A stretch of DNA of 64,000 nucleotides, taken from positions 28,975 to 92,974 of the forward strand of contig SCRL01000006.1 in the NCBI GenBank assembly GCA_004298065.1, written 5' to 3'. Made by a program: the position numbers and the translations under genes. This DNA is from Gammaproteobacteria bacterium (lineage in GTDB: Bacteria > Pseudomonadota > Gammaproteobacteria > Acidiferrobacterales > Sulfurifustaceae). Of the stretch, positions 32,433-46,055 are shown piece by piece (within the stretch, counting starts at the first letter, position 1; each line of letters starts with the position of its first letter). Under the pieces are notes generated by a model, which was given only the letters and a program-made list of their open reading frames with translations, did not search any database and had not been told where the DNA came from.

Positions 32433-33119
32433 ATGCGCCACAAACCGAAACGCAGCCGAACGACACGTCGGGTCGCCAGGAAAACGCCGGCCTACGAGCG
32501 GGACGACGGACCGCTGACTGAAGAGCAGATCGCAGCGATCAAGAAGCTCGTGCCGCAGGGGCGCGGCATGAGGATTGCGTCGTCCTGTTTCCGGACGAGA
32601 CGGCGCGGACAGGCGGTCGCACCGGAAAGCGGCGCGGGAAATGATACGCATCGGGTTGAATGGAACCATGACCAGGAAAATCACCAGACACACCAAGACG
32701 CCGTGCGCGAAGAGGGGCGGCAAGGGGTGGAAAGCTTTCCAGGCGATGCTGGACCGGCCGGCCCGCCGCAATCCGAAGCTCGCGCGGCTTCTCAAGACCA
32801 AGGCCCTGTGGGACTAAAACTACGCAATGGCATTTCGATGAGAAAGCGCGAGACAACCAACCGCCGCGGGAAAGAAGCGACGCAACGCCGGCCGAGGAAG
32901 CGGGCCGACAGCCAGCCGATCGCGAAGCAGATCGCAGCGATCCAAAGGCTGGCGGCCGCAGGGCTGCGGCAGGGCGGCAGCGTCGTCCTCGTTTCCGAAC
33001 GGACCGAACCGGGGGACGCCGCAGGGTCAAGCACCGGCATCCTTCGTAAGGCGGGTGGTTTTGCCCGTGCCCGCCGAGCTATACGCAAGTTAACCCAGGT
33101 TATCGTCCTAGGCGTATAA
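32433..33119 (+). pseudogene. tandemly duplicated, partly frameshifted small basic ORFs
   Basis: Two units start at 32433 (MRHKPKRSRTT...EEQIAAIKKL) and 32838 (MRKRETTNRR...AKQIAAIQRL). They share identical 16-mers about 402 nt apart, and unit 1 carries a 1-nt indel relative to unit 2. Confidence 0.4.
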
Positions 33120-33218
33120 ATGGGTAACTTCCGTATAAATGCGGATCGGTCCTCCGGCGGCTGGCCAACGGTGCGCACGACGAGGACCTGGGGCAATACG
33201 CTCACTGACGGAGACGCC

Positions 33219-33572
33219 ATGTTCACGATCACGGCACGAAAGCCCTCAAGCCCCGGGGAAATCCTCAAGGAGGAATTCATGGCGCCGGCGGGCCTGACCC
33301 AGGAAGGGCTTGCCGATGCTATCCACGTCGAGCGTCGCTGGATAAACGAGATCGTCGGCGACAAGCGCGGGATCACACCGGACACGGCGATACGCCTGGG
33401 CCGCTACTTCGGCGTGAGCGCGCGGTTCTGGATGAACCTGCAGGCGCGCCACAACCTCTGGCATGTTCTGGCGGAGCGCAGGAAGGAGTACGAGCGTATC
33501 AAGCCGCACAAGGCAAGGCTGGCATATCGGCCCGTAATGCGGAAGAAACTCCATGGGCGCGGGCGTTCATGA
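33219..33572 (+). CDS. higA: HigA-family antitoxin (HTH), apparently orphan
   Basis: PGEILKEEFMAPAGLTQEGLADAIHVERRWINEIVGDKRGITPDTAIRLGRYFGVSARFWMNLQ is a typical HigA/VapI HTH. No intact HigB ORF lies upstream. Confidence 0.8.
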   Translation: MFTITARKPSSPGEILKEEFMAPAGLTQEGLADAIHVERRWINEIVGDKRGITPDTAIRLGRYFGVSARFWMNLQARHNLWHVLAERRKEYERIKPHKARLAYRPVMRKKLHGRGRS

Positions 33573-33972: not shown

Positions 33973-34350
33973 TCAGGGGAATACACCGTTCGGCCCGCGG
34001 TGGTAAATCAAGTCCTCCACGGGCTGTCCGCCGACGAAATGCTCGCGGATGATCCGGTCCAGGTTCGCCTCGGTCACGTTGTAATACCAGATGCCATCCG
34101 GTTGCACGCAGACGATCGGCCCGGATTTGCAGGTGGCGAAGCAGTACGTGCGGGTGCGTTTGACACGTTGTTCGCCTTGATCGAGACCGGCTGCCTTGAA
34201 TTTCTCGCCGAGGCCGTCGAACAACGCCTGGGATTCGCCGTTCTCCGTGCAGCGCGGGCCGACGCAGACCAGCAGGTGGCGTTTGTAAGGCTGCATTTTC
34301 GGTTTTGCGATCTCCACCGGGATCGCGCCGACAGGCCCGGCGTCAGACAT
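33973..34350 (-). CDS. thioredoxin-like [2Fe-2S] ferredoxin, last gene of the cobalamin operon
   Basis: The cysteine pattern LLVCVGPRC ... CFATCKSGP is typical of the thioredoxin-like ferredoxin family. It overlaps the preceding cbiH gene by 8 nt. Confidence 0.75.
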   Translation of the reverse strand: MSDAGPVGAIPVEIAKPKMQPYKRHLLVCVGPRCTENGESQALFDGLGEKFKAAGLDQGEQRVKRTRTYCFATCKSGPIVCVQPDGIWYYNVTEANLDRIIREHFVGGQPVEDLIYHRGPNGVFP

Positions 34351-35287
34351 CCTTACTCTCCTCGTTCCGAACCGACTCGATCTCGATTACCGGCAGATCG
34401 AAATGACGGGCGATCGCCTCCGACGACTCGCCGCGCAACAGGCGTTCGCGCACGCTCATCTTCCAGCCGTCCAGCCCGTGGCTGAGCGAACGCCCGGCCT
34501 GTTCGCCTGCCAGCGTCTCGCCGGTGACGCCATCGTATTTATTGGCATAACCGCGCGGCGTAATCATCAGGCCGTCCTGCATGAAGGTGTTGCTGTTGCC
34601 GACCAGCACGGTGGTGAGCATGCCGATCTCGCAGTCGGCCATCTGCGCGAGGCGCGTCATCTGGATGGATTGTTTTTTGCGGTACGCCGATTTGACCACC
34701 GCGACCGGTGTGTCCGGCGCGCGGTGCCGCAGCAGGATGCGTTGCGCCTCGACGATCTGCTGCGTGCGCCGCCCGCTCTTGGGGTTGTAAAGCGCGATCA
34801 CGAAGTCCGCGCGCGCCGCGGCGTCCAGCCGGCGCGCGATCACCGGCCAGGGCGTGAGCAGGTCGGAGAGCGAGATCGAGCAGAAGTCGTGGGTGAGTGG
34901 CGCACCGACCAAGGCCGCGCACGCCGAAAGCGCCGTGGTGCCCGGGACCGCCTCGACCTCGATGCCGTCGCCGGGATGCCAGCCGGATTGCAGCAACACC
35001 TCATACGTGGGTCCGGCCATGCCGTAGACGCCGATGTCGCCCGACGAGATCAGTGCCACGATCCGGCCCTGGCGCGCGCGGTCGTACGCCTCGGTGCAGC
35101 GATCGAGCTCTTCCGTCATGCCCTTGCGTATCACTTCCTTGCCGTCCAGCAAGTCTTGTACCAGCTTGATGTAGGTCGAGTAGCCGATGACGACATCAGC
35201 CTCGGCGATGGCGGCGCGTGCGCGGAAGCTCATGTGCTCCTGCGCGCCGGGCCCGAAGCCCACCAGATATATTTTTCCATTACTCAT
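34343..35287 (-). CDS. cbiH: precorrin-3B / cobalt-factor III C17-methyltransferase
   Basis: GFGPG tetrapyrrole methylase N-terminus, SSGDIGVYGMAG, and a roughly 60-aa C-terminal extension. Confidence 0.88.
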   Translation of the reverse strand: MSNGKIYLVGFGPGAQEHMSFRARAAIAEADVVIGYSTYIKLVQDLLDGKEVIRKGMTEELDRCTEAYDRARQGRIVALISSGDIGVYGMAGPTYEVLLQSGWHPGDGIEVEAVPGTTALSACAALVGAPLTHDFCSISLSDLLTPWPVIARRLDAAARADFVIALYNPKSGRRTQQIVEAQRILLRHRAPDTPVAVVKSAYRKKQSIQMTRLAQMADCEIGMLTTVLVGNSNTFMQDGLMITPRGYANKYDGVTGETLAGEQAGRSLSHGLDGWKMSVRERLLRGESSEAIARHFDLPVIEIESVRNEESKDV

Positions 35288-35678
35288 TTCCTGTCCTCAC
35301 GATGGAAACCGTGGCGTTCCTGCCGTCCGCGCCGCGGTGTTTGTGTTTCTCGACCAGCAGATGTTTGAGCCCGGCATGCGCCGCGAGCAGCGCGGCCGCC
35401 TCGGCCACCGCCGGCGTGCCCATGTACTTCAATACCGTCGCGGAGGGATTCGGCACAGGCACCTTCGCCAGTTCCTCCGCGCTGAAAAAATGCAGCGGCC
35501 AGTTCCAGCGCGCGGCCAGCATCAGGATGCATGCCTCGTCGCTCTTCTTGTCGATGGTCGCCAGTCCCTGCACCGCCACCCGGTCGAGGCCGGCCAGCTT
35601 CAGCGCCTGATCCACGGCGGTCTCCAGCGTTTCGAGCGGCGTGCCGCGATCGCAACCCACGCCCAATAACACGCGCAT
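35280..35678 (-). CDS. CbiG C-terminal / CobE-like domain protein
   Basis: MRVLLGVGCDRGTP ... VLKYMGTPAVAEAAAL matches the CobE/CbiG C-terminal domain. ATGA overlap with the upstream gene. Confidence 0.8.
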   Translation of the reverse strand: MRVLLGVGCDRGTPLETLETAVDQALKLAGLDRVAVQGLATIDKKSDEACILMLAARWNWPLHFFSAEELAKVPVPNPSATVLKYMGTPAVAEAAALLAAHAGLKHLLVEKHKHRGADGRNATVSIVRTGNE

Positions 35679-36424
35679 CAGTCCTGGCCCTCTGGCGGCC
35701 GGTAGACCACCAGACGCTCGTGCAATTGTTGCCATAGCGCCGCGGTTATCTCGCGGCGCGTCACCCACAGCACGGCGCGAAAGTCTTCGAGCTTCACGTC
35801 ATCGAAGCGTTCGAAGAGATGGATGTTGCGCGGCAGGGCGGTCGGTCGCGTCCACCATTTTGTCGAGCCCGCCTCCTGCACGAAGGCGACCGGCTCGCCG
35901 TTGACCACGTGCGCCGAGACGCGCGTGATATTGATCTTAGGCGCCTCGACCCGCCATCCGAGTTCGCGCCCGAGAATATCGACAGGGACGGTCTTGCCGA
36001 CGTCGGAGGCGGTGGTCAGCACCGCCGTCGCGCCGAGCAGTGCGGCGATTGTCTCGGCGCAGGCGTTGGCGCCGCCGACGTGGCCGGAGAGCACCGGGAT
36101 GACGAAGCGCGCGGCGTCGTCCACCACCAGCACGCCCGGGTCTTCGTCCTTCGATTTGAGATGTGGCGCGATAAGCCGCACGACGGCGCCGAGCGAAACG
36201 AAAAACACGATCTGATCGTAGACCGCGAACAGTTGGGCGATTTGGGCGCTGAGGGCGCCGGCATACGGCTTCACTGCATTCGGTACATCTCCAAGCCGCG
36301 CGGCGAATTTCTCCGCGACGATCACGTCCGCCGCTGGCAGCCGGGGCGCGAGTTTTTCCAGCAGCGAGGAGCCGTGTTTGGTGATGGCCACCAGCGCCAC
36401 GCGCGCTTGTCCGGGGATACTCAC
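35678..36424 (-). CDS. cbiG: cobalamin biosynthesis protein CbiG (N-terminal and middle domains)
   Basis: LVAITKHGS ... VVDDAARFVIPVLSGHVGGANA is typical of CbiG. Confidence 0.85.
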   Translation of the reverse strand: MSIPGQARVALVAITKHGSSLLEKLAPRLPAADVIVAEKFAARLGDVPNAVKPYAGALSAQIAQLFAVYDQIVFFVSLGAVVRLIAPHLKSKDEDPGVLVVDDAARFVIPVLSGHVGGANACAETIAALLGATAVLTTASDVGKTVPVDILGRELGWRVEAPKINITRVSAHVVNGEPVAFVQEAGSTKWWTRPTALPRNIHLFERFDDVKLEDFRAVLWVTRREITAALWQQLHERLVVYRPPEGQD

Positions 36425-37200
36425 GCGTTTTCCCCGGCGGATTTCTTGCGGCAGCCGCGTTGCAGCGCGCCACGTGGCCGATCCGGATTGCGCACCAGCA
36501 GCAGCGAGAGGTAGTTTACTTTCTCGCCGCGCAGCCGCGCCACGTCGCGCACCACGCGCTCCTCGGGCGTGCCGACCTTTTCGAGAAAGCAGCTCTTGGC
36601 GAGCAGACCGCGGCGTACGAGCAGGTCGATCAGGTCGTCGAGCAGCGGCTTGACCTTGAGCAACACGAGCGTGTCGAACTCCGGTAACAGCCGCTCGACG
36701 GTGTCTACGCCGTAGCCGGCGGGCAGGATCGCGAGCGTTTCGTCGCTCTCGGCGAGCGGCTCCCCCAGGTGCGCGGCGGAGGCGTGGTACGAGGGTACAC
36801 CGGCGATCGTCTCCACCTCGATATCGCCGTCGAGCGCGCGAATGCTGCGCACGAGATAGGTGAAGGTGGAATAAGTGGAGGCATCGCCCTCGACCAGGAA
36901 CGTCACGTCGCGGCCGGTGGCCAGGATATCGAGCGCGGTCTGCGCCGCTTGCAGCCAGTAGCGCGCCAGGATTGCCGTGTCATGGGTCATGGGAAAGACC
37001 AGCGGCGTGTGCGCCGCGGGCAGGCTCAACCCCGCGCGTCGGACGATGTCGAGCGCGTAACTGCTGTCGCCCTGGCGGCGCACCGGATAGGTCCAGTGCG
37101 CCGGACCCTGCAGGGCCTCCCAGGCGCGGCGCGTGATGAGTCCCGGATCGCCGGGTCCCAGCGATACTCCCATCAGCCTGCCTTTTTGCGGGATACTCAT
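36421..37200 (-). CDS. cbiL: precorrin-2 / cobalt-factor II C20-methyltransferase
   Basis: GVSLGPGDPGLIT methylase N-terminus. The start at Met 37200 forms an ATGA overlap with the upstream stop. Confidence 0.88.
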   Translation of the reverse strand: MSIPQKGRLMGVSLGPGDPGLITRRAWEALQGPAHWTYPVRRQGDSSYALDIVRRAGLSLPAAHTPLVFPMTHDTAILARYWLQAAQTALDILATGRDVTFLVEGDASTYSTFTYLVRSIRALDGDIEVETIAGVPSYHASAAHLGEPLAESDETLAILPAGYGVDTVERLLPEFDTLVLLKVKPLLDDLIDLLVRRGLLAKSCFLEKVGTPEERVVRDVARLRGEKVNYLSLLLVRNPDRPRGALQRGCRKKSAGENA

Positions 37201-38480
37201 GGCTGTCCTCGTTGTGCCGTGACAATCCACACTGGGTTTTCCGCCGCCAGCCGGTGCATGTCGAGAATGGGGCGGCTGCGTGCGGCTTGCAGTTGCGTCA
37301 CGTCCCAGGCCGCGCCGGTTTCCTTCAGGGTTTCAATGGCGGCGGCCAGGTTCTCGAAGGTCGCGAAATTCATCACCAGCGTGTCGCCGGTTTTCAGGCG
37401 CGAGATGCAGAGCCGTATCAGGTCTGCCAGCTCGCCGCCCGAGCCGCCGATAAACACGGCGTCCGGGTCGGGCCAGGTCTCGAGTCCCTGCGGCGCCTTG
37501 CCGTGCACCAGTGTGTAGTTGTGCACGCGCAGCCGGCGGCGGTTGTCGAGGGCGATGGCGGCGTCCTCGGCGTTCTTCTCGATGGCGTACACATGGCCAT
37601 CAGGGGCGAGCCGCGCGGCTTCGAGGCCGACGCTGCCGGAACCCGCGCCGATGTCCCAGACGATGCTGTCCGTACGCAGATGCATGTGCGCGAGCGATAC
37701 CGCGCGCACTTCGCGCTTGGTGATGAGCCCCTTGTCGGGTTTACGCTGGTGAAAGCTGTCATCGGAAAGTCCGAACAGCACTTCGCGTCGTGTCGCATCG
37801 TCGCGCCACAGCAGCACCACGTTCGGTTCGGCGAAGCGCCGACCGGCGACCTCGGCCACGGTGCAATCGGTCACCAGCCGCTCGTCGTCCCGTAACAGGC
37901 GTTCGGCGACGGCGATACGGAACCGGACATCGAGCCCCTCGCTCACCAGCATGCGCGCGATGCGATCCGGCGAGTTGTCGGGGCTGGTGAAGACCGCGAG
38001 CCGATCGTGCCGGCTTGCGGCGCGCAATAATTCGTAGAGGCCGTGCTCCGGACCCGCGCCCTCGTGCCACTCGCCGGCGTCGTGACTGTGAACGGAGAGA
38101 ATTTTCATGTCCTGCCAGGGGAGCCCGAGACGCGCGCAGGCGAGCTGCACCGTGGACACGTTGGGCATGACTTCGCAGGCCTCGATGCACAGCCGCGCCT
38201 GGAGAAAGCCGGCGATGCCGTGGCACAGCGGGTCGCCGGTGGCGAGCACCACCACGCGCCGGTCCTCGGCCTGCGCGGCGCGTATCCACTCCGGCACCTG
38301 ACTGAGCTTGCCGGTGAGATCGCGGCGTTCGGCGTGCGGCGCTAGCCGGCTGGCGAAGAGGTCGAGCGTGCGTGCGCCGCCGATGACGAGATCGGCGGTT
38401 TCGATGTGCGCCAGCGCGCGCGGCGAGAGGCCGTCCGCGCCGTTGTCGAGCACGCCGACGATGCGGCAGGGATTGTTCAT
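37197..38480 (-). CDS. precorrin-6Y C5,15-methyltransferase (decarboxylating), fused CbiE-CbiT
   Basis: An N-terminal tetrapyrrole methylase domain plus a C-terminal SAM-MTase domain (WDIGAGSGSVGLEAA). The start MNNPCRIVGV at 38480 has an ATGA overlap. The 605-aa ORF in the track is an over-extension. Confidence 0.88.
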   Translation of the reverse strand: MNNPCRIVGVLDNGADGLSPRALAHIETADLVIGGARTLDLFASRLAPHAERRDLTGKLSQVPEWIRAAQAEDRRVVVLATGDPLCHGIAGFLQARLCIEACEVMPNVSTVQLACARLGLPWQDMKILSVHSHDAGEWHEGAGPEHGLYELLRAASRHDRLAVFTSPDNSPDRIARMLVSEGLDVRFRIAVAERLLRDDERLVTDCTVAEVAGRRFAEPNVVLLWRDDATRREVLFGLSDDSFHQRKPDKGLITKREVRAVSLAHMHLRTDSIVWDIGAGSGSVGLEAARLAPDGHVYAIEKNAEDAAIALDNRRRLRVHNYTLVHGKAPQGLETWPDPDAVFIGGSGGELADLIRLCISRLKTGDTLVMNFATFENLAAAIETLKETGAAWDVTQLQAARSRPILDMHRLAAENPVWIVTAQRGQP

Positions 38481-39586
38481 GGCGTGTTCCCCGTGGCCTC
38501 GGCGATTTTCTTTCCTTCGAAATCGCAGACCAGCACCTTCAGCTGAAACTTGCCGGGATAACGGCCGGCGAGCGTGTCGATCACGCGCCGCGCGAGCGCG
38601 TGGTAAAACGCATCGCCCAGGCCCAGCGCCTCCAGGCGTTCGGCGGCGTAGCGCGCGGTTTCGGCGGCACGGATGTCCGCGCACACCTCGGCCGGCGCGC
38701 CCACGGCGGCGGCGATGTCCGCCACCAGTTCCGTGTCCACGGGATTGCGGCCGGCGTGGGTGATGGTTTCGCCCTGGGCCATCTTGGTGAGCTTGCCTAC
38801 CATGCCGCCGATCACCACGTGGCGAATACCTTCCTCGACCGCCGTGTCGAGCGCGTAGCGCAGGAAATCGCCCATCTGCACGAAGCACGCGGGCGGCAAC
38901 TGCGGCAGCTCCTGCATGACGAATTTCTCCGTGCGCCCGCCGGTGGTGAGCACCACCGTATCCTGGCCCTGCCTCGCCGCCACCTGAATGCCCTGGACGA
39001 CGCTGGCGCGCCAAGCCGCCGTGGAATAGGGACGCACGATGCCGGTAGTGCCGAGGATCGAGATGCCGCCGACGATCCCCAGCCGCGCGTTCAAGGTCTT
39101 TTTCGCCATCTTCTCGCCCTCCGGGACCGAGATGACGATTTCAAGCCCCATCCGCTTGAGCAAGTCGCGGGCCGCGGCGCGCACGTTTTCCTCGATGTTG
39201 CGCCGCGGCACCGGGTTGATCGCCGGGCCGCCGACTTCGAGCCCCAGACCCGGCATCGTGACCCTGCCCACGCCCGCGCCACCCTTGAGCATCACGGTGT
39301 CGGGCACCTCCAGCTTCAGGTACGCGTCGGCGGTCAGGTGCGCGCCGTGGGTGCAGTCCGGGTCGTCGCCGGCGTCCTTGACGACGACGGCGTGCGCCCA
39401 GTGCCCGTCGCAGCGGCCGTCGGCAACGGCAAAACGGACGATTTGCTCGTTCGGCAGATGGCAGTCGATTTCGTCCGGCACTCGTCCGGTGGCCAAGCCG
39501 AGCGCCGCCGCCCGCGCCGCGGCCGCCGCGCAGGCGCCGGTGGTGAAGCCGGTGCGCGTGCCTTTCTTTTTCGTGGTCTCCATCAA
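38477..39586 (-). CDS. cbiD: cobalt-precorrin-5B C1-methyltransferase
   Basis: 369 aa with GFTTGACAAAAA at the N-terminus and GGISILGTTGIV, both typical of CbiD. Confidence 0.9.
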   Translation of the reverse strand: MMETTKKKGTRTGFTTGACAAAAARAAALGLATGRVPDEIDCHLPNEQIVRFAVADGRCDGHWAHAVVVKDAGDDPDCTHGAHLTADAYLKLEVPDTVMLKGGAGVGRVTMPGLGLEVGGPAINPVPRRNIEENVRAAARDLLKRMGLEIVISVPEGEKMAKKTLNARLGIVGGISILGTTGIVRPYSTAAWRASVVQGIQVAARQGQDTVVLTTGGRTEKFVMQELPQLPPACFVQMGDFLRYALDTAVEEGIRHVVIGGMVGKLTKMAQGETITHAGRNPVDTELVADIAAAVGAPAEVCADIRAAETARYAAERLEALGLGDAFYHALARRVIDTLAGRYPGKFQLKVLVCDFEGKKIAEATGNTP

Positions 39587-39599
39587 GGCTGGGGCGTCC

Positions 39600-40262
39600 T
39601 CATGCCTTCCGCCGCGCCTCGGCCAGCGCCAGCAGCGCGTGCAGCGCTGCCACCGCCAGCGTCGAGCCGCCCTTGCGGCCGTCGGTCACGATCCAGGGAA
39701 CGTCCGCGCGCGCGGCAAGCGCCGCCTTCGATTCTGCCGCCGACACGAACCCGACCGGCATGCCGATGACGAGCGCCGGGCGCGCGCCTTCCTCGCGAAC
39801 TAGGCGCACGGCCTCGATGAGCGCCGTAGGCGCGTTGCCGACGGCGACGATGCCGCCGTCGAGCAGGCCGAGGCGTTGCGCCTTGCGCATCGCCTGCACC
39901 GCGCGCGTGCTGTTATCGATGCGCGCCTGCGCGATCACGTCGGCGTCGGCGATAAACTGGTGGGTGGCCACGCCGAAATGCGCCAGGCGTGGTTGCGACA
40001 AACCGGAGAGAATCATCTCCACGTCTGCCACGATCGGTCGGCCGGCCAGGATGGCCTCGACGCCGGCACGCACCGCATCTGGATGGAAGCGTGTGAGGCC
40101 GTTGAACTCGAAGTCGGCGGTAGCGTGGATCATGCGTCGCACGATCGGCCACTGCTCGGGGGTGTAGCCGTGCGGCCCGGCCTCGCGGTCGATGATGGCG
40201 AACGACTCGTGCTCGATGTCCCGGCCGGCGCGGGTCAGTTGTTCGGTCACCGTCGCGTTCAT
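39600..40262 (-). CDS. cbiC: precorrin-8X / cobalt-precorrin-8 methylmutase
   Basis: IVRRMIHATADFEF, VAVGNAPTAL and GMPVGFV motifs. The start MNATVTEQ at 40262 has an ATGA overlap. Confidence 0.9.
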   Translation of the reverse strand: MNATVTEQLTRAGRDIEHESFAIIDREAGPHGYTPEQWPIVRRMIHATADFEFNGLTRFHPDAVRAGVEAILAGRPIVADVEMILSGLSQPRLAHFGVATHQFIADADVIAQARIDNSTRAVQAMRKAQRLGLLDGGIVAVGNAPTALIEAVRLVREEGARPALVIGMPVGFVSAAESKAALAARADVPWIVTDGRKGGSTLAVAALHALLALAEARRKA

Positions 40263-41140
40263 GACACGTGTGCCTCCTCGGCATGAGCGGGATGGAGCGG
40301 GTGGCGATGGTCCCGATCGTCGTGACGATGACCGTGGCCATGTTCTGCGGCCAATGCGCGAACCTTGCAGCCGTCGCAGGGCATGAGCGCGGGGTTGATA
40401 CCGGCACACGCCGCGCGCACGCGGTGCTCCACCAGTTGGAAAATCTCTTCCTCGGAACCGAAATAGTCGCCGCGTGCGAAGCGGATGCGCGGATATTGCA
40501 TCTCGAGATGCTCCACTTGGCGCTTGATGCGCCCGATCAGTGTGCCGGCGAAGAGGTAATAGGGCAGCACCACGATCTGGGTCATGCCGCACCAAACCTG
40601 CCGCTGCACCACGCGTTCGAGACGCGGATAGGTGATGCCGGTGAAGGCGACGTCCACCAGCTCATGGTCGCTTTCTTCCTGGAGCCAACGCGCCATCTTC
40701 GCCACCTCGCCGTTGGCCATGCGGTCCGACGAGCCGCGGCCGAGCAGGATCACGCCGGTGGTCGTGGGGTCGGGCACGTCGAGCGCGCGCATGGCCGCGT
40801 GCAGCCGCCGTTTCAGGATGGCGAGGATCGAATCGCAGGCACCCAGATGCGGTGCGTAAATGAATTCCGTCCATGGATGTCGTGCGCGCGCTGCCTCGAT
40901 ATGTTCCGGGATTTCCATTTTCACGTGGCCGGCGGCGTTCAGGATCAGGGGCACGACGATGACGCGACCGCCGCTGCGCGCCAGGCCTTCGTCGACCAGC
41001 GGCGTGGCGAACTCGATGAAGCACGCTTGGACGTTCCAATCCGGTTGCCGCGCGCGTAAGGTTCGCGCGAACTCTTCGATCTCGCGGTTGCCGGCGGCGT
41101 CTCGTGAGCCGTGACCTATCAGTAAGATCGTTTCGTTCAT
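40259..41140 (-). CDS. cbiX: sirohydrochlorin cobaltochelatase, long form with Cys/His-rich tail
   Basis: Two CbiX repeats (LLIGHGSRD, ILLGRGSSD), a C-terminal MPCDGC motif and the His-rich tail HGHGHRHDDRDHRH. Start MNETILL at 41140. Confidence 0.88.
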   Translation of the reverse strand: MNETILLIGHGSRDAAGNREIEEFARTLRARQPDWNVQACFIEFATPLVDEGLARSGGRVIVVPLILNAAGHVKMEIPEHIEAARARHPWTEFIYAPHLGACDSILAILKRRLHAAMRALDVPDPTTTGVILLGRGSSDRMANGEVAKMARWLQEESDHELVDVAFTGITYPRLERVVQRQVWCGMTQIVVLPYYLFAGTLIGRIKRQVEHLEMQYPRIRFARGDYFGSEEEIFQLVEHRVRAACAGINPALMPCDGCKVRALAAEHGHGHRHDDRDHRHPLHPAHAEEAHVS

Positions 41141-41186
41141 GATGCCTCCTTCCCATTGCGCAAGGCACGCATCCGGGCCGTGTCCG

Positions 41187-42539
41187 TCAGCCGAGCGCAT
41201 GTTTGAAAACCGTCTCCGTGCCCTCGTCCCAGCCGTCCCACAGGTAGTCGTCGGCGATCCCATCGGCGATGAGGCGAAAGGCATAACGCACCTGCTCCTT
41301 GTAGAAGCCGCAGAAGGCACCGGTGCGGTCCATGCCGCCGTTCATCTCATGCGCCTCCGCCGGGCAGGGGGAGCCGCAGAAATGGCGGATGGCGCAGTCG
41401 CGACAGGGCGCGAAGGCATCCACGTCGCGGCCGGTAACGAGGCGGAAACCCTCGGAATCGAGCGCCGCCTCCGCGCCCGATTCGAACAGGTTGCCGCCGC
41501 GGAAGCGCGACAAGCCGATGAACTCGCTGCACGGGTAAAGACCCCCATCGGCGGCCAAGGCGAAGAAGGCGCGGCCGCCGCCGCAGGGCGAGATGTCGCA
41601 CATCAGACGCCGCGCCGTCGGTGCGAGGATGGCGATGAGAATGTTAGCGAAGTTGGCGACCACCAGCTTGCGCCCGGTCTCCCGGTACAATTCGTGGCTG
41701 CGGTCGAGGGCGGCGATGAAGGCGCGCGCCATATCGGGGTCGGCCGGTTTCACGCCGCGAGCCCCGGGCAGGGTGCAGCGGACGGTGTTGAGCATGCAGG
41801 TGGGCACCTCGCGGGCGTGGAACAGCTCGATCATCCGCGGCAGATGGGCGAGGTTCTCCGTCGTGCACGTGGTGATCACGCTCCACGCATCGTAGCCGCG
41901 CAGGGCGTCCATCGCCGTCAGCACCCGCGCGTGCACGCTGCGGCCGGACCAGGTATGGCGGGTCGAATCGGTGATCGCGGCTTCGGGACCGTCAAGCGAG
42001 AGGCCGATGCTGACCTCGCGGGCGGTGAGGAAATCGATCGCCGCCCGGTCGAGCAGCGTGCCGTTGGTCTGGAGGCCGAAGATGAAATCGTCGTCGAAGG
42101 TCTCGATGGCGGCGAACACCGCCTTGCGGTTCATCAGCGGCTCGGAACCGTGGAAGATGATCCGCGGCCGGCGCCCCTCGGGCATCACCGTCGCGAAGTA
42201 GCGACGCAGCTTGTCCAGTGCCGCCAGCAGCTTGTCTTGCGGCATATGCCCGCCGTCGCGACGCATCTTGCCGGGCAGGTAGCAATAGGTGCAGTCGAGA
42301 TTGCAACGCTCGGTGGGGTTCACGTAGACAGCCGACGGCTTTAACCCGAAGCGCAGCGCATGCAGCTCGCGGGCGAAGTCACCGGCCTTCTCGCGGTAGG
42401 CGTCGAGCAACGGACCGCCGGCCAAGATGTCGGCAACCTGCGTCTTGTCCACCAGCGCCCAGAAGGCGGTGCCGGGATCAGTCAGCGCCATGTAACGGGC
42501 GTGACCGATGTCCACCGGCGTCAGAAGAGGTACCGTCAT
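41187..42539 (-). CDS. radical SAM / SPASM-domain peptide-modifying enzyme
   Basis: CNLDCTYC (CxxxCxxC) radical SAM cluster motif. The C-terminal SPASM cysteines are CDISPCGGG ... YPC ... CRDCAIRHFCGSPC ... FCGFY. An N-terminal extension of about 70 aa precedes the core. Confidence 0.88.
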   Translation of the reverse strand: MTVPLLTPVDIGHARYMALTDPGTAFWALVDKTQVADILAGGPLLDAYREKAGDFARELHALRFGLKPSAVYVNPTERCNLDCTYCYLPGKMRRDGGHMPQDKLLAALDKLRRYFATVMPEGRRPRIIFHGSEPLMNRKAVFAAIETFDDDFIFGLQTNGTLLDRAAIDFLTAREVSIGLSLDGPEAAITDSTRHTWSGRSVHARVLTAMDALRGYDAWSVITTCTTENLAHLPRMIELFHAREVPTCMLNTVRCTLPGARGVKPADPDMARAFIAALDRSHELYRETGRKLVVANFANILIAILAPTARRLMCDISPCGGGRAFFALAADGGLYPCSEFIGLSRFRGGNLFESGAEAALDSEGFRLVTGRDVDAFAPCRDCAIRHFCGSPCPAEAHEMNGGMDRTGAFCGFYKEQVRYAFRLIADGIADDYLWDGWDEGTETVFKHALG

Positions 42540-42685
42540 TTCACCTTTTTCCGATCCATCAGCACGTAGTGCGAGAGACCAACCCCGTCGGGGTTGCAGC
42601 TCTTGCGCACGGCGATGGTCGGTGCTGGCGCCGCCGGGGCGATGGGGACGGTTTGCTGGCGTTGCTTGGGCTTGGTTTTCTGCAT
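42536..42685 (-). CDS. 49-aa candidate precursor peptide for the adjacent radical SAM enzyme
   Basis: MQKTKPKQRQQTVPIAPAAPAPTIAVRKSCNPDGVGLSHYVLMDRKKVK. An AAGGAGA Shine-Dalgarno lies 6 nt upstream of the ATG at 42685. Its stop overlaps the rSAM start (ATGA). Confidence 0.6.
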   Translation of the reverse strand: MQKTKPKQRQQTVPIAPAAPAPTIAVRKSCNPDGVGLSHYVLMDRKKVK

Positions 42686-42708
42686 GGTCGTCTCCTTGTG
42701 AAAGAGGA

Positions 42709-43497
42709 TTATCGTGTTGCCGTCTTCATGCCCTTGCGGAAACGGTGCGTGAATGCGACGTCGTACAGCTTGGATTTTTTCAGCTCCGGCCACCGGCGCG
42801 CGCCCAGTGCAGGGCTCACGATAATCATGGCCTGGCTCGCGATCTTCTCAGCGCGGCACTTGTCGCGGATGTCGGCGAGCGTGCCGCGGACGATTTTTTC
42901 CTCCCCCGGCCAGCTTGCCTTGTGCACCACCAGCACCGGGCTGTCGTCACGCCAGCCGGCCGCGAGCAGCGCTTCTTTGACCTTGTGCAGCAGCGTGATG
43001 GAAAGAAACAGGCACAGCGTGCAGCGATGTCGCGCCAGCTCCTCCAGCGATTCGCCCGGCGGCATGGGCGTGCGGCCCTGGAGGCGGGTAAAGATCACCG
43101 TTTGCGTGACCTCGGGCAAGGTCAGGCTTTCGACCGCCGCCGCCGCAGAGGCCATGGCCGAGGATACGCCGGGTACCACGCCGACCTCGATGCCGGCGAT
43201 ATCCAGCGGCTGCACCAGCTCGATCAGCGTTCCATAGAGCGTGGGGTCGCCGGTCTGCAAGCGCACGACGGTGTCGTGCGCTTGCGCCTTGCCGATGAGC
43301 CACGCGCTGATCTGCTCCAAGGTCATCTCCTTCGAATCCGCGATCTCGCAGCCTGCCGGCGCGAAGCGCGTAGCGACTTCCGACACCAGCGAACCGGCGT
43401 ACAGGATGGCGCCGGCGCGCGCGATCAGGTCGCGGCCCTTGACCGTGATCAGCTCCGGATCGCCCGGACCCGCGCCCACGAACCAGACCTTGCCCAT
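42709..43497 (-). CDS. cbiF: precorrin-4 / cobalt-precorrin-4 C11-methyltransferase
   Basis: MGKVWFVGAGPGDPELITVKG, GDPTLYG. The true start is at 43497; the 611-aa ORF in the track is an over-extension. Confidence 0.9.
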   Translation of the reverse strand: MGKVWFVGAGPGDPELITVKGRDLIARAGAILYAGSLVSEVATRFAPAGCEIADSKEMTLEQISAWLIGKAQAHDTVVRLQTGDPTLYGTLIELVQPLDIAGIEVGVVPGVSSAMASAAAAVESLTLPEVTQTVIFTRLQGRTPMPPGESLEELARHRCTLCLFLSITLLHKVKEALLAAGWRDDSPVLVVHKASWPGEEKIVRGTLADIRDKCRAEKIASQAMIIVSPALGARRWPELKKSKLYDVAFTHRFRKGMKTATR

Positions 43498-43505
43498 GCT
43501 CGGCC

Positions 43506-44159
43506 TTACGCGAGCCTGAGCCCGTGCACCGCGAAGCAGAAGCGCACCCACGGCCGGTGCTCGTAGCGCTTGAGCAGCCGCAGGGTCGCATAGGTGAACA
43601 CCGGCTCGAACGCGACCACCGCGAGATACGACGCGGCGAACGCCGCCCAGGCGGCGAACGGCGTGGCCACGTCGCCCGCCAGCAGCCAGAAGCCGACCAT
43701 GGCGGTGACGCCGCCGTAGTACATGGCGTCGAGCCTCAGGATCGTGCGCCAGCCGATGCGGTGACCGTTGGTCGTCTCGCGCAGCGTGCGGCCAAGCGTG
43801 TAATGCACCGCGATCAGCGGCAAAACCAGCGACAGCGAGTTCACCGCGAGATGCACCAGGTCCGCCGGCTCGAACAGCAGGCCCTGCAGCAGCAGGCCGG
43901 CCGCGAATCCGAATAGTGTCGGGAGGAAGCCGAGCGTCAGGTAGATCGCCATGGCGCCGACGAAGTGCAGCTCCGACGGCCCAACGCCCACGTGGAAACT
44001 CTGCATGAAGAGCGAGAAGAATACTGCCGCGAGCAGCGTACGCAGAATGTCCGCCGGCCGCCGGAGCAGGTCCTTCGCGTACCAGCCCAGTACGCTCACG
44101 GCGCCGGCGTTGGCCAGCATGATTTTGGTCTGGGCGATGAAGCCGGGTTCGATGTGCAT
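43506..44159 (-). CDS. CbiM/NikM-like metal (cobalt) uptake membrane protein
   Basis: The MHIEPGF N-terminus (Met-His metal-binding start), a polytopic membrane profile and its position in the B12 operon support the call. No cbiN/Q/O genes are nearby. Confidence 0.7.
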   Translation of the reverse strand: MHIEPGFIAQTKIMLANAGAVSVLGWYAKDLLRRPADILRTLLAAVFFSLFMQSFHVGVGPSELHFVGAMAIYLTLGFLPTLFGFAAGLLLQGLLFEPADLVHLAVNSLSLVLPLIAVHYTLGRTLRETTNGHRIGWRTILRLDAMYYGGVTAMVGFWLLAGDVATPFAAWAAFAASYLAVVAFEPVFTYATLRLLKRYEHRPWVRFCFAVHGLRLA

Positions 44160-44180
44160 GACGATCTCCTCTGGGTGATT

Positions 44181-45527
44181 TCAGTTGACGGCATTTCCCG
44201 ACCGCGTCGCGTCGGGCATGAACAGGCGCGCCGCTGCCTCGGGGTTCGACGGAAAATAAAGATGCAGATAGGCCGCGTGCAGCCGCCCGAGGCGGTACAC
44301 CGGCTCGCCGCGCCGGCCGGCACGCGCGCCCTCGCTCCAGGCGACGGGCGCGAGCGGGCTCTCCATCCGCGAGTAGTGAAACGTATGGCCGCGCACCGTT
44401 CCCTCGGGCAGCGCGACGCAGTGCATCCCGAGACTCGCGAGCCGTTCCTGCATGACCGCGTGACCCGGTAGCAGGCTGAGCAGCTTCGCGCGCCGGCCGT
44501 GCACATCGGTGAGCGATTCGAGGAGATACAGCATCCCGCCGCACTCGGCGACTATCGGCTTGCCGGCGGCGTGGTGGGCGCGGATCGCGTCGGCCATGGT
44601 GCGGTTGTCTTCCAGCTCGGCGAGGTGCAATTCGGGATAGCCGCCGGGCAGATACAGCGCATCGACCTCGGGCAGAGTGTGGTCTGCGAGCGGCGAGAAG
44701 AAGAGAAGCTCCGCGCCGAGCGCGCCCAAGAGATCGAGATTGGCGCGATAGAGGAACGAGAATGCCGCGTCGCGTGCGCAGGCGATGCGCACCCCGGCCA
44801 GCCGCTTCGGCGGCGTCACCGTTTGCATCCTAGGCTCCGTAACCGGTGCAAATTCGGCCGGCGCGGGCAGCGTGTCGTTCGTCATGACGAGCGACGCGGC
44901 GGCGCGTTCGATGCGCATATCGAGATCGGCGATTTCCGTCGCCTGCGTCAGGCCCAGATGCCGTTCGGGCAGTGCGATCTCGGTCGCGCGCGGCAGCCAG
45001 CCGAGCAGGGGCAGCCCGGGCGGCAGGCTCTCGGCGAGCACCCGATGATGGCGCTCGCCGGCGAGGCGGTTGGCCAATACACCGGCAAAGGGAAGATCCT
45101 TACGATACGTCGCGAGCCCATGCGCCACGGCGCCGAAGGTCTGGGCCATGGCCGAGCCGTCGATCACCGCGAGCACCGGCAGGCCGAACCGGGCGGCGAG
45201 ATCGGCGCTGGAGTTGTCGCCGTCGAACAGGCCCATCACGCCTTCAATCAGGATCAGGTCGGCCGCACCCGCCGCTTCATATAATAAGGATCGGCAGTGC
45301 TCCTCGCCGCCCATCCACAGATCGAGCTGATAGACCGGGTTGCCGGAGGCCCGCTCCAGGATCATCGGGTCGAGAAAATCCGGCCCGGTTTTGAACACGC
45401 GCACGCGCAGGCCCCGATCGCGGTAGTAACGAGCGAGCGCGGCGGTAACCGTGGTCTTGCCCTGGCCCGAGGCCGGTGCGCTGATCAACAGGGCCGGGCA
45501 GAGGCGCATGTTCTTTCCGTGACTCAC
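44181..45527 (-). CDS. cbiA: cobyrinate a,c-diamide synthase
   Basis: ISAPASGQGKTTVTAAL P-loop and a C-terminal glutamine amidotransferase domain (CGGMLYL). An alternative start at Met 45509 is possible. Confidence 0.9.
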   Translation of the reverse strand: MSHGKNMRLCPALLISAPASGQGKTTVTAALARYYRDRGLRVRVFKTGPDFLDPMILERASGNPVYQLDLWMGGEEHCRSLLYEAAGAADLILIEGVMGLFDGDNSSADLAARFGLPVLAVIDGSAMAQTFGAVAHGLATYRKDLPFAGVLANRLAGERHHRVLAESLPPGLPLLGWLPRATEIALPERHLGLTQATEIADLDMRIERAAASLVMTNDTLPAPAEFAPVTEPRMQTVTPPKRLAGVRIACARDAAFSFLYRANLDLLGALGAELLFFSPLADHTLPEVDALYLPGGYPELHLAELEDNRTMADAIRAHHAAGKPIVAECGGMLYLLESLTDVHGRRAKLLSLLPGHAVMQERLASLGMHCVALPEGTVRGHTFHYSRMESPLAPVAWSEGARAGRRGEPVYRLGRLHAAYLHLYFPSNPEAAARLFMPDATRSGNAVN

Positions 45528-45759: not shown

Positions 45760-45995
45760 GAAGATCTGCGCGCCGTGTATCGCCCTCCGCGATATCCTCG
45801 TGGTATCGCTTCAGGCCGGTCTCCGGGCTTGCGAGCGGGTTTCCCCGGACCTGCGCCTTCCCGTGCCATTGCACAGTGGCGTGATGCAGATCCTTGACTC
45901 GTTTACCGTTGCGGGGGCAGCGCCGGACTGGTTCCATTCTGGAACGCACCGGCTTCCCGTTTCACCCCGTGGATGGATTACCCACGGGGAACCTG
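45760..45995 (-). promoter_or_regulatory. cobalamin (B12) riboswitch leader of the cob operon
   Basis: The minus strand reads ...GGGAAGCCGGTGCG...GCTGCCCCCGCAACGGTAA...AGCCCGGAGACCGGCC. The last string is the B12 box (plus-strand coordinates 45814-45829). Confidence 0.85.
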
Positions 45996-46055
45996 AAGCT
46001 TTACTAAAGATGCGCCGAGTCTATGCCGCGGGTGGCAAGCTGTCAAAACCCTGCA

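Follow-up and report, generated by a model that had tools for sequence, protein, structure and literature searches.

CbpA/CbpB, a catalogued pair of precursor peptide and radical SAM/SPASM enzyme in a riboswitch-headed cobalamin operon, with a probable accessory role in oxygen-independent B12 synthesis

In the PqqA/PqqE and MftA/MftC systems a short precursor, its core highly conserved, is encoded beside a SPASM enzyme, and the product is a housekeeping, intracellular compound, not an antibiotic. PQQ and mycofactocin are made with the help of a separate chaperone that binds the peptide (PqqD, MftB), of a peptidase and of additional enzymes. The SCIFF/ScfB unit of Clostridia (Tte1186) is an autonomous and widely distributed pair of peptide and radical SAM/SPASM maturase, with neither exporter nor protease and with unknown physiological role. 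CteB (thermocellin synthase, PDB 5wgg/5why) and the ranthipeptide synthase PapB both form Cys thioether cross-links; in CteB an open iron site of auxiliary cluster I binds the substrate Cys. anSME (PDB 4k36-4k39) has a SPASM domain with two fully Cys-ligated auxiliary clusters and oxidises one Cys in a short motif, C-x-[P/A]-x-R. On the side of B12 synthesis, CobW delivers cobalt and CobE carries intermediates; both are accessory, non-catalytic factors of the aerobic pathway. The oxygen-independent route is regarded as enzymatically complete.

We analysed a 64,000-nucleotide stretch of gammaproteobacterial DNA (the window) in which a peptide-maturase pair lies within a cobalamin operon. A first-pass annotation, made from the letters alone, had mentioned a radical SAM family associated with cobalamin operons in the databases, and this proved correct: the family is TIGR04163 (rSAM_cobopep, CbpB), with TIGR04164 (cobo_pep, CbpA) as its peptide. 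The NCBIfam search that it suggested placed the window pair in both, with no difference at the family level. The matches span the full profiles, both for CbpB (residues 7-433 on positions 2-428 of 428, 716.3 bits, cutoff 375) and for CbpA (residues 23-47 on positions 1-25 of 25, 55.5 bits, cutoff 35). Homologues in public genomes already carry the names CbpB (‘peptide-modifying radical SAM enzyme’) and CbpA (‘modified peptide precursor’). The pair is thus catalogued and named and is not a new kind of element, and its novelty had been overrated at first. The family is defined computationally: TIGRFAMs of this kind were made where a radical SAM subfamily co-clusters with a family of precursors (PMC3531188). 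A literature search found no paper mentioning the CbpA/CbpB pair and no experimental report. What the analysis offers is a sharper, testable picture of a known family. The features of the locus are as follows.

46018..46046, minus strand: sigma-70-like promoter candidate (TTGACA-17-TAGACT) just 5' of the riboswitch; 10/12 consensus matches, a consensus match only and not evidence of function.
45797..46011, minus strand: cobalamin riboswitch aptamer (RF00174) at the head of the operon; Rfam 125.8 bits against a gathering score of 31.5, full model 1-189.
44181..45527, minus strand: cbiA/cobB, cobyrinic acid a,c-diamide synthase (NF002204, 443.9 bits, cutoff 254).
43506..44159, minus strand: CbiM-family cobalt-uptake membrane protein (PF01891, 113.9 bits; NCBIfam CbiM models match below their cutoffs only).
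42709..43500, minus strand: cbiF, (cobalt-)precorrin-4 C11-methyltransferase (TIGR01465, 316.6 bits, cutoff 259.65); TAA stop at 42711..42709.
42691..42697, minus strand: Shine-Dalgarno sequence AAGGAGA of cbpA, read from the sequence, with a 5 nt spacer (CGACC) to the ATG at 42685.
42536..42685 (stop codon counted in), minus strand: cbpA, 49-aa precursor peptide (TIGR04164).
42554..42616, minus strand: conserved CbpA core I24-D44, IAVRKSCNPDGVGLSHYVLMD, with Cys30, Ser38, His39 and Tyr40; (near-)invariant positions judged over 51 + 41 distinct cores.
41187..42539, minus strand: cbpB, 450-aa radical SAM/SPASM enzyme (TIGR04163; AlphaFold2 model).
42336..42539, minus strand: CbpB N-terminal domain (residues 1-68), candidate peptide-binding element; three strands and two helices, conserved D10-I-G-H13 and A25-F-W27.
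42282..42305, minus strand: radical SAM cluster motif C79-x3-C83-x2-C86, from sequence and homologue alignment.
41310..41600, minus strand: SPASM region with eight invariant Cys (C314, C319, C337, C379, C382, C388, C392, C410).
40259..41140, minus strand: cbiX, long-form cobalt chelatase (PF01903, 150.3 bits in two stretches), whose translation shows a Cys motif and a C-terminal tail rich in His.
39600..40250, minus strand: cbiC, (cobalt-)precorrin-8 methylmutase, by profile match; start approximate.
38477..39586, minus strand: cbiD, cobalt-precorrin-5B C1-methyltransferase (NF000849, 498 bits).
37197..38465, minus strand: cbiE-cbiT fusion (TIGR02467 + TIGR02469).
36421..37230, minus strand: cbiL (TIGR01467, 223.5 bits).
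35678..36424, minus strand: cbiG, N-terminal and middle part, by profile match.
35280..35681, minus strand: CbiG_C as an ORF of its own (PF01890, 128.6 bits).
34343..35287, minus strand: cbiH (TIGR01466, 327.8 bits).
33973..34350, minus strand: [2Fe-2S] ferredoxin-like gene, last of the operon; matches below curated cutoffs.

The gene order is cbiF-cbpA-cbpB-cbiX on the minus strand, with the riboswitch upstream. The cbpA stop (TGA, 42538..42536) overlaps the cbpB start (ATG, 42539..42537), and the cbpB stop is the TGA at 41189..41187. cbiG is in two parts, since CbiG_C forms a separate ORF. A scan of the window found no terminator-like sites within the intergenic gaps from cbiA to cbiX. The same-strand RF00174 aptamer upstream, the tight packing of the genes and the terminator-free gaps support cbpAB as a predicted member of the B12 regulon. 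Of the known steps of the anaerobic ring pathway, only CbiJ is missing from the operon. The first-pass annotation had read here a 49-codon ORF with a strong Shine-Dalgarno sequence between cbiF and cbiX, an ATGA overlap (42539..42536) with a 450-aa gene and a riboswitch-headed cobalamin operon around the pair; the sequence, the Rfam match and the gene packing bear out all three.

The pair is present in at least 560 species genomes from several phyla, with hosts that include Betaproteobacteria, Sedimenticola, Planctomycetota, Myxococcota, Syntrophales and Nitrospinales. CbpB identity is 61-91% across phyla and ∼ 40% between two clades, I and II, from each of which the neighbourhoods of 80 loci were surveyed (80 + 80). 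A CbpA-like ORF lies directly 5' of cbpB on the same strand at 77/77 testable loci of clade I (limited to those with upstream DNA) and at 65/66 of clade II. This survey had been proposed at the outset, with non-conservation of the short ORF named as one outcome that would speak against a peptide-enzyme pair; the ORF is kept, and together with the matches to both family models this upholds the arrangement of a radical SAM/SPASM enzyme with an adjacent short peptide.

The two clades differ in layout. The usual clade I unit is a stand-alone riboswitch-cbpA-cbpB, the riboswitch being found in 69/72 loci with our own nhmmer profile; by Rfam a dedicated RF00174 lies directly 5' of cbpA at the 11/11 testable loci of one run, and also at four further loci, L081-L083 and L085. 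In most relatives cbpA starts 50-150 nt past the aptamer. Many clade I genomes carry the pair among unrelated genes, often without cob genes within 10 kb, and corrin-ring genes occur within 10 kb at about 22/80 loci. The embedded layout seen in the window (also in L001 and L002) is a rare form within this clade. In clade II the pair lies inside cob/cbi operons at ∼ 90% of loci and has no adjacent riboswitch; within 1.5 kb on the same strand, a cob/cbi or transport gene is found upstream at 42/46 loci and downstream at 40/47. The gene downstream of the pair is often convergent. All-against-all ORF clustering (80 loci; 80 + 80 surveyed) gave no consistently adjacent third gene family.

The translation of cbpA is MQKTKPKQRQQTVPIAPAAPAPTIAVRKSCNPDGVGLSHYVLMDRKKVK, with 10 K/R versus 2 D/E; its only Cys is residue 30. 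This agrees with the basic N-terminus and the lone Cys first noted. The Pro/Ala-rich centre that had also been pointed out is present, but belongs to the variable region; conservation lies in residues 24-44. The pattern common to the cores of both clades is C-x3-[GA]-x-G-L-[ST]-H-[YF]-[VIL] (Cys as position 0). Over 77 distinct core DNA sequences, pairwise identity at codon positions 1/2/3 is 0.78/0.86/0.54, and the invariant Leu, Ser and Gly are written with 4 to 6 synonymous codons. Judged at the DNA level, the codon-position pattern and the synonymous codon use show that CbpA is translated and under protein-level selection. It is scarcely credible, then, that the ORF is no gene and arose by chance or as part of the riboswitch expression platform. 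Its shortness and its distance from the aptamer in most relatives would suit such an origin, but third-codon-position divergence with invariant amino acids contradicts it, the window ORF has a strong Shine-Dalgarno sequence and the ATGA overlap at a locus without an adjacent riboswitch, and the ORF is conserved throughout a clade, II, that has none.

Several variants of the precursor bear on how it may be used. Sedimenticola precursors contain two core copies in tandem, which fits the core as a substrate module. A precursor of 31 aa has only 9 residues ahead of the Cys, so recognition must reside in the core. In one lineage the core is fused in frame to the C-terminus of an AsnB-like protein. 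We also count the sharing of one core by clades whose enzymes are only ∼ 40% identical as evidence that the core is the substrate.

Two further ideas about the peptide were rejected. The core is not a piece of a larger protein: the 120 matches listed of 272 are all 44-81 aa long, the AsnB-like fusion lineage being the sole exception. Natural CbpA-CbpB fusions, which would have allowed a pseudo-complex model, were looked for among longer database entries and not found; these have N- or C-terminal extensions only.

CbpB has the features expected from the first reading, a CxxxCxxC motif (CNLDCTYC, C79/C83/C86) and a full SPASM set (the seven Cys from C319 to C410, with C314 upstream), and all these Cys are invariant in 40 homologues. 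Pfam Radical_SAM (58.9 bits) and the NCBIfam SPASM model TIGR04085 (48.5 bits, cutoff 27) both match. From their number, the eight SPASM Cys could ligate two auxiliary [4Fe-4S] clusters completely. Among the other NCBIfam families, the peptide maturases PapB (111 bits) and DynA (103) come next. The enzyme stays below the cutoffs for the thioether and SCIFF maturases (PapB, 340; TIGR03974, 84 versus 425), the anaerobic sulfatase maturase (TIGR03942, 96.2 versus 349.45) and the tetrapyrrole enzymes NirJ (54 versus 515) and AhbD (51 versus 500). The PqqE (TIGR02109) and MftC (TIGR03962) models were absent from the matches reported in the NCBIfam search of the window enzyme; P0367, a divergent CbpB homologue, scores 54.7 bits on TIGR02109 (cutoff 381). 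The invariant C248/C255 were considered as catalytic residues (for example as the H-atom donor of an epimerase) and dropped, because their conservation fails in clade II enzymes passing the TIGR04163 cutoff.

The AlphaFold2 model of CbpB (pLDDT 85, pTM 0.88) is matched best, over its whole length, by the sactipeptide thioether synthase CteB (E 9e-20, TM 0.70). anSME is second, followed by ChlB, TigE and SuiB, all of which modify peptides or proteins; PqqE (6c8v) is also among the matches. These comparisons weigh against a tetrapyrrole substrate for CbpB (a cobalt-precorrin or a corrinoid), on the model of NirJ or AhbC/AhbD, a reading in which CbpA would be a small accessory or regulatory subunit. 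The pair does sit among corrin-ring enzymes, SPASM enzymes that modify tetrapyrroles exist, and NirJ and AhbD give the weak matches above. Peptide maturases nevertheless reach about double the scores of the tetrapyrrole enzymes, the nearest structures are all peptide or protein modifiers, and tandem cores and a core attached C-terminally to another enzyme suit a substrate better than a subunit. Moreover, the ring steps other than CbiJ are already in the operon, and CbiJ is found with the pair elsewhere. We regard action on a tetrapyrrole as very unlikely.

The N-terminal ∼ 65-68 residues of CbpB form a conserved domain of three strands and two helices (AlphaFold2 model, alignment). The first-pass annotation had taken this extension for a possible peptide-recognition element, and it is a candidate for peptide binding; kinship with known RRE proteins did not emerge. 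A sequence profile of the domain gave 0 matches in the PDB. In Foldseek the isolated domain reached an E-value of 0.84 at best, and TbiB1, LynD and ThcOx, all RRE proteins, turn up only among non-significant matches.

Compared with CteB, CbpB shares the full-length fold, including the N-terminal domain, and CbpA offers an invariant Cys of the kind that CteB and PapB cross-link. Sequence identity to CteB is only ∼ 19%, however, and CteB has no Cys at the position aligned with C314. On the evidence of this alignment, C314 weakens, without excluding, a CteB-like thioether mechanism; since the fold is closest to that of CteB, CbpB may still work in the same way. In the fourth Cys for auxiliary cluster I, CbpB resembles anSME, and the clade I cores, which read C-x-[P/A]-x-G, recall the sulfatase motif. 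Unlike CbpB, anSME lacks the N-terminal domain, and CbpA cores lack the Arg at +4 of the motif. Clade II has C-A-K-T-A with Lys at +2, so the resemblance fails across the CbpA family; a sulfatase-like Cys-to-formylglycine conversion is thereby rejected as an argument from the motif, not as a chemistry. The Cys-x3-Asp acceptor logic of PapB likewise fails for CbpA, because the Asp of C-N-P-D varies among cores (D/E/K/T/R), and with it we discard a PapB-like Cys-x-x-Asp thioether. Chemistry that needs a Tyr hydroxyl was also set aside, position +10 being Phe in 35/41 clade II cores.

In the mechanism that we propose, CbpB would bind the ∼ 22-residue CbpA core, probably aided by the conserved N-terminal domain. 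The C79/C83/C86 cluster would cleave SAM to the 5'-deoxyadenosyl radical, which would take a hydrogen atom from the core, and electrons would leave through the two auxiliary [4Fe-4S] clusters, presumed to be fully Cys-ligated. The modification most consistent with the conserved residues would be an intramolecular cross-link or an oxidation involving the invariant Cys (0) and G-L-[S/T]-H-[Y/F] (+6 to +10). A Cys-to-Ser/Thr thioether closing a 9-residue ring is one product that could result.

The same arrangement of a radical SAM/SPASM enzyme and a short ORF is canonical for RiPPs, and in the precursor the N-terminal half varies and the C-terminal half is conserved. One might take CbpA for an ordinary secreted RiPP, an antimicrobial or a signal, that lies in a cobalamin operon by chance. 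This we consider highly improbable. A linked leader peptidase or exporter, the general mark of a RiPP, is missing from the 80 + 80 loci, and in all 160 no linked protease, exporter/transporter or immunity gene was found. Natural-product cores usually vary, but the CbpA core is nearly invariant across phyla, the enzyme keeps the identity given above over the same range, and a riboswitch or a link to a cob operon is present at nearly every locus. The preference expressed in the first-pass annotation for a role in B12 supply over a generic natural product is strengthened by these data (riboswitch at 69/72 clade I loci, operon embedding in clade II, no exporter or protease).

With no linked protease, exporter or tailoring enzyme, and with embedding in or co-regulation with cob/cbi genes, modified CbpA is most likely intracellular. 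In this it would resemble the products of PqqA/PqqE and MftA/MftC, likewise housekeeping compounds made from a short precursor; partner genes such as those needed for PQQ and mycofactocin are not linked to cbpAB, however, and the core residues differ. As an autonomous two-gene unit cbpAB resembles SCIFF/ScfB, although SCIFF has six Cys, as opposed to the one invariant Cys of CbpA, and no link to cobalamin riboswitches or operons.

We propose, with moderate confidence, that CbpA is a precursor modified by CbpB and that the product is an intracellular accessory to oxygen-independent B12 synthesis. Cobalamin would shut off transcription through the riboswitch, which lies 5' of cbiA in the window and is dedicated to cbpA in most of clade I. 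The strongly basic modified peptide would stay in the cell and assist the early-cobalt-insertion route. Cobalamin riboswitches also govern B12-independent isozymes, so regulation alone is no proof of a biosynthetic role. A modified peptide could instead spare B12, replacing or compensating a B12-dependent process under scarcity in the manner of riboswitch-controlled metE and nrdAB. The stand-alone riboswitch-cbpA-cbpB units of clade I (69/72) match the pattern of such isozymes, as do the clade I neighbourhoods that often lack cob genes inside 10 kb. The pair nevertheless lies mid-operon among cob/cbi genes at ∼ 90% of clade II loci, in the window and in L001 and L002, and about 22/80 clade I loci do have corrin-ring genes within 10 kb. 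Genes of B12-independent isozymes are normally not interleaved with cbi genes, and we know of no B12-dependent reaction that a peptide and one radical SAM enzyme could replace. On balance a B12-sparing function seems unlikely, if the strongest of the competing explanations.

Within the proposed accessory role, a more specific function is a tentative suggestion that we regard as possible but doubtful: modified CbpA could serve the oxygen-independent cobalamin pathway as its own peptide-derived metallochaperone or cofactor. The His, and possibly a Ser/Thr or Cys-derived group, would be offered by a cross-linked loop to Co(II) or cobalt-corrinoid intermediates. Our guess is that the His at +9 is a ligand and that the peptide handles these species between CbiMNQO, the chelatase CbiX/CbiK and the enzymes of ring synthesis. 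Such a role would be analogous to those of CobW and CobE in function only, as neither has any sequence or structural relation to CbpA. To our knowledge, Salmonella, Priestia megaterium and Propionibacterium, the models of the anaerobic pathway, make B12 without such a pair; if so, the pair is at most accessory.

The interest of the locus lies in finding a riboswitch-controlled or operon-embedded peptide-maturase pair, with a nearly invariant core, beside a B12 route supposed to be complete. If the peptide does deliver cobalt or carry labile cobalt-corrinoids, it would represent an accessory layer of B12 synthesis undescribed for anaerobes and would extend RiPP-type chemistry to primary cofactor metabolism; it could also bear on the engineering of B12 production and on the cobalt economy of anoxic environments. 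With a metallochaperone, in particular, a RiPP-type product would for the first time have a housekeeping part in the synthesis of a tetrapyrrole cofactor, and the anaerobic route would have its functional counterpart of CobW or CobE.

The commonest upstream neighbour of the clade II pair is cbiO, the ATPase gene of cbiMNQO (20/46), an adjacency that may partly reflect common ancestry of the loci and not selection. The absence of cbiJ from the window operon raised the idea of cbpAB as its stand-in, which was rejected because the two co-occur: in a Planctomycete-type locus CbiJ (PF02571) is encoded in the cbi cluster adjoining cbpAB.

The pair lies in the window as the first-pass annotation had described it, with the cbiF stop, the AAGGAGA, the 49-codon ORF, the ATGA-type overlap, the 450-aa radical SAM/SPASM gene and cbiX all present:

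42711..42709, minus strand, cbiF stop codon TAA (read from the sequence)
42697..42691, minus strand, AAGGAGA, 5 nt ahead of the cbpA ATG at 42685
42685 (ATG) to 42538..42536 (TGA), minus strand, cbpA ORF, 49 codons, MQKTKPKQRQQTVPIAPAAPAPTIAVRKSCNPDGVGLSHYVLMDRKKVK
42539..42537 (ATG) to 41187, minus strand, cbpB ORF, 450 aa, its ATG overlapped by the cbpA TGA
41140, minus strand, cbiX start, 46 nt past the cbpB end

Pfam Radical_SAM and NCBIfam SPASM TIGR04085 both match CbpB, which contains the motif CNLDCTYC (C79/C83/C86) together with all cysteines of the SPASM set. The cobalamin-operon-associated radical SAM family that the annotation had mentioned does exist, and the locus is a member: both products exceed the curated NCBIfam cutoffs in the search proposed there, CbpB matching TIGR04163 rSAM_cobopep ('peptide-modifying radical SAM enzyme CbpB') over its full length (716.3 bits, cutoff 375) and CbpA matching TIGR04164 cobo_pep ('modified peptide precursor CbpA') over residues 23-47 (55.5 bits, cutoff 35). 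The names CbpA and CbpB are already attached to public homologues, among them those from Aromatoleum, Thauera, Dechloromonas, Propionivibrio and many metagenome-assembled genomes. The pair is already known as a family, which standard annotation would name automatically. TIGRFAM models of this sort were built computationally, from radical SAM subfamilies that co-cluster with precursor families (PMC3531188). Full-text searches found no literature mention of the pair; the family is catalogued and uncharacterised.

A genome scan located close CbpB relatives in at least 560 species genomes. Its best 80 loci (clade I, 61-91% enzyme identity) come from Betaproteobacteria, Sedimenticola, Planctomycetota, Myxococcota, Syntrophales/Smithella and Nitrospinales. 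An exhaustive scan covering 1.84 billion representative proteins added full-length relatives at 39-45% identity; the four that were checked all score above the TIGR04163 cutoff, and one member of this group seeded a metagenome scan that supplied 80 further loci (clade II). The suggested survey of short ORFs beside homologues bore the peptide out: at 77/77 clade I loci with upstream DNA, a profile made from 11 peptides detects a co-oriented CbpA-like ORF immediately ahead of the enzyme gene, and the peptide is present at 65 of the 66 testable clade II loci. Pairwise comparison of 77 distinct core DNA sequences gives identities of 0.78, 0.86 and 0.54 at the first, second and third codon positions, and the invariant Leu, Ser and Gly use 4-6 synonymous codons. 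These patterns show that the ORF is translated and its amino-acid sequence under selection.

Conservation is concentrated in a core of ∼ 22 residues, numbered here from its invariant Cys (position 0, Cys30 in the window). The clade I core is [V/T]-I-A-x-R-K-x-C-x-[A/P]-x-G-x-G-L-S-H-Y-[I/V]-L-M-D (51 distinct cores) and that of clade II is [I/V]-S-[Y/F]-[H/R]-[L/M]-K-C-A-K-T-A-N-G-L-[T/S]-H-[F/Y]-V-M-Y-G-D (41 distinct cores); common to both are [R/H] at -3, C at 0, [G/A] at +4, G at +6, L at +7, [S/T] at +8, H at +9, [Y/F] at +10, [V/I/L] at +11 and [L/M/F] at +12. In the N-terminal half, Thr, Gln, Ala and Pro abound in Betaproteobacteria and Lys in the other lineages. Because this half varies, the Pro/Ala-rich centre noted in the first-pass annotation, which falls within it, is not the functional part.

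Three precursor variants bear on the core. In Sedimenticola two full cores occur in tandem, ...VIALRKSCRADGVGLSHYILMDK...VMASRKSCRADGVGLSHYILMDKK... (loci L058:9450-9932 and L059:2078-2461). A 31-aa precursor, MSVMMCRMECKVDGNGLSHYIIYDEQGELPF (L092:7864-9675), has only nine residues ahead of the Cys; its CbpB is above the TIGR04163 cutoff (494.8 bits) and is followed by a 60-aa 2x[4Fe-4S] ferredoxin. In a low-GC lineage (L089:6911-10033; also L090 and L091) the core is fused in frame, without an intervening stop codon, to the C-terminus of a truncated asparagine-synthetase-like protein (PF00733). All three variants indicate that the core is sufficient in itself as a recognition-and-modification module, which is what a substrate should show.

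Several of these loci have further features. L059 carries a second cobalamin riboswitch after cbpB, ahead of cbiA. In the L089 lineage cbpB is followed by a diphthine-ammonia-ligase-like PP-loop ATPase, within a riboswitch-controlled operon cobC-cobU-cobT-cobS-cbiB-cobD-...-btuFCD-btuB; L089 and L094 share one contig. The presence of two ATP-dependent carboxylate-amidating enzymes hints that the lineage may add a further tailoring or conjugation step, and a Dph6-like gene adjoins the pair again in L099, L108, L122 and L125. At L088:326-454, directly after the 3' end of cbiB, a 42-aa ORF ending ...RAICFRLRSSRRRSGLTHYVEK lies 280 nt from a 42%-identical CbpB. It has the G-L-T-H-Y motif, with the Cys 10 residues ahead of the Gly instead of the usual 5, and the CbpA profile gave no match to it; it may be a divergent precursor. 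Two metagenome-assembled genomes each hold two different cbpAB modules (L002 and L037 in DYFV01, L034 and L045 in JAJZUT01). In DYFV01 one module is part of the cbi operon and the other is free-standing with a riboswitch of its own; their core variants are SCNPDG versus RCEADG.

The AlphaFold2 model of CbpB (40 homologues as input) is confident (pLDDT 85, pTM 0.88). Its best PDB match, over the whole length including the N-terminal domain, is the sactipeptide synthase CteB (E 9e-20, TM 0.70), followed by anSME, ChlB, TigE, SuiB, SkfB and PqqE. All of these listed matches act on peptides or proteins, and it is very improbable that CbpB, for all its place among corrin-ring genes in the window, has a tetrapyrrole as substrate. 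With eight invariant Cys residues, the SPASM region has enough ligands for full coordination of two auxiliary clusters, the situation in anSME; no counterpart of C314 exists in CteB. Residues ∼ 1-65, predicted to form three strands and two helices, contain invariant D-I-G-H and A-F-W motifs, and this domain in isolation gave no significant sequence or fold match. The earlier suggestion that it may be a peptide-recognition element is plausible. A sister radical SAM/SPASM group (proteins P0388, P0399, P0411 and relatives; 26-32% identity) shares the N-terminal domain motif (..D-P-x-T-x-F-W..) as well as the two C-x4-C cysteines, and scores just under the TIGR04163 cutoff (267-338 bits). Its contigs are short; a membrane transporter-like gene comes next in L087 and an ABC ATPase in L093.

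We propose that CbpA would be the substrate of CbpB, which would modify the core by hydrogen-atom abstraction; the target may be a Cys-centred cross-link or oxidation, with the G-L-[S/T]-H-[Y/F] segment also involved. Checked against conservation across the family, four ideas were dropped: a motif of the sulfatase type, a Cys-x-x-Asp link as made by PapB, Tyr-hydroxyl-dependent chemistry and C248/C255 as catalytic residues.

The two clades differ in architecture. The typical clade I unit is a stand-alone riboswitch-cbpA-cbpB. RF00174 lies directly upstream of cbpA at all 11 testable loci of a 14-locus Rfam run and at four more in two later runs (L081-L083, L085), and a profile made from the Rfam matches detects the riboswitch at 69 of 72 testable loci, all except L001 and L002, embedded as in the window, and L006. 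The last (L006:1300-1840) is the sole clade I locus with ample upstream DNA but neither riboswitch nor cbi-operon embedding; the DNA ahead of its cbpA is AT-rich, differs from the remainder of the contig, looks foreign, and could be an insertion or assembly join. Clustering of all flanking ORFs in clade I found no third conserved gene; what lies downstream differs from locus to locus and often points towards the pair. Since cbiF directly adjoins cbiX in nine clade I loci, we infer that in the window's lineage cbpAB inserted between them and its private riboswitch was dropped. Group II intron domains (RF02003, RF02005) match at L002:5107-5245, just upstream of the cob operon's riboswitch, and at L055:1379-1494.

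Clade II pairs sit within cob/cbi operons, with a same-strand cob/cbi or transport gene within 1.5 kb upstream at 42/46 loci and downstream at 40/47; a private riboswitch immediately upstream was seen at only one of 62 loci. The gene most often found upstream encodes the ATPase of the cobalt transporter cbiMNQO (20/46; CbiM, CbiQ and the ABC ATPase were confirmed in L123), and cbiB ranks next; cbiD, cobA or cbiA usually follow the pair. Given the clade I riboswitches and this embedding, B12 regulation or a place among B12 genes is close to universal for the pair. L092, where neither a riboswitch nor a cob gene was found within 8 kb, is the clearest case of a pair without visible B12 context.

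No protease, exporter or immunity gene was linked to the pair in either clade. This, together with cbi-operon embedding in two independent clades, frequent adjacency to cobalt-uptake and chelatase genes, and riboswitch control, favours an accessory role in oxygen-independent B12 synthesis over a B12-sparing substitute, which, riboswitch control notwithstanding, we consider unlikely. That CbpB modifies CbpA to yield an intracellular accessory of this pathway is, on balance, our reading of the locus, held with some reserve. Our preferred, unproven guess is that the product handles Co(II) or a cobalt-corrinoid intermediate, with His +9 as ligand. The interest is moderate: a widespread, strongly conserved, B12-controlled peptide system is known from sequence alone, and the picture assembled here (two architectures, a 13-position core, an autonomous pair and a link to cobalt transport genes) makes direct experiments straightforward.

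The window's operon begins with two control elements:

45797..46011, minus strand, full-length cobalamin riboswitch (Rfam, 125.8 bits)
just upstream of the riboswitch, minus strand, promoter-like TTGACA-17-TAGACT (consensus match)

Then follow, on the same strand, cbiA, a CbiM-family membrane protein, cbiF, cbpA, cbpB, cbiX, cbiC, cbiD, cbiET, cbiL, cbiG (two ORFs), cbiH and a [2Fe-2S] ferredoxin-like gene. From cbiA to cbiX genes overlap or are 5-46 nt apart, and no terminator-like sites were found in the gaps. This is the early-cobalt-insertion ('anaerobic') ring pathway: the operon (33973-45527) encodes all its ring enzymes except the cobalt-precorrin-6A reductase CbiJ, whose gene may lie elsewhere in the genome. 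A role for cbpAB as CbiJ replacement was dropped, as CbiJ adjoins the pair at one locus. The ring-gene order recurs in L038, L040, L043 and L052 (tblastn, with queries that excluded cbiJ). Within cbiG (35280-36424), the N-terminal and middle part spans 35678..36424 and a separate CbiG_C ORF starts from ∼ 35681 in another frame (PF01890, 128.6 bits); a cbiG-cbiH match spacing of ∼ 400 nt is also seen in L001, L002 and L038. The CbiM-family protein between cbiA and cbiF (43506-44159; PF01891, 113.9 bits) is under every NCBIfam CbiM cutoff, and no cbiN, cbiQ or cbiO is recognisable beside it. The long-form CbiX terminates with the Cys motif MPCDGC and a tail rich in His, HGHGHRHDDRDHRHPLHPAH (40259-40400), reminiscent of Priestia megaterium CbiXL and its Fe-S, His-rich tail.

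Three mobile-element-type genes lie directly past the operon end (25860-33572):

27421..29772, Mu-type transposase-like ORF (PF09299)
25860..27452, TniB-like AAA ATPase
33120..33572, HigA antitoxin

Their presence suggests an adjoining Tn7- or Tn5053-like element. Two matches assign the window to a betaproteobacterium: its CbpB is 91% identical to that of a Hydrogenophilus MAG, and a Burkholderia sRNA, anti-hemB, matches at 5600-5690 on the minus strand (RF02837, 65.5 bits versus a gathering score of 49.5).
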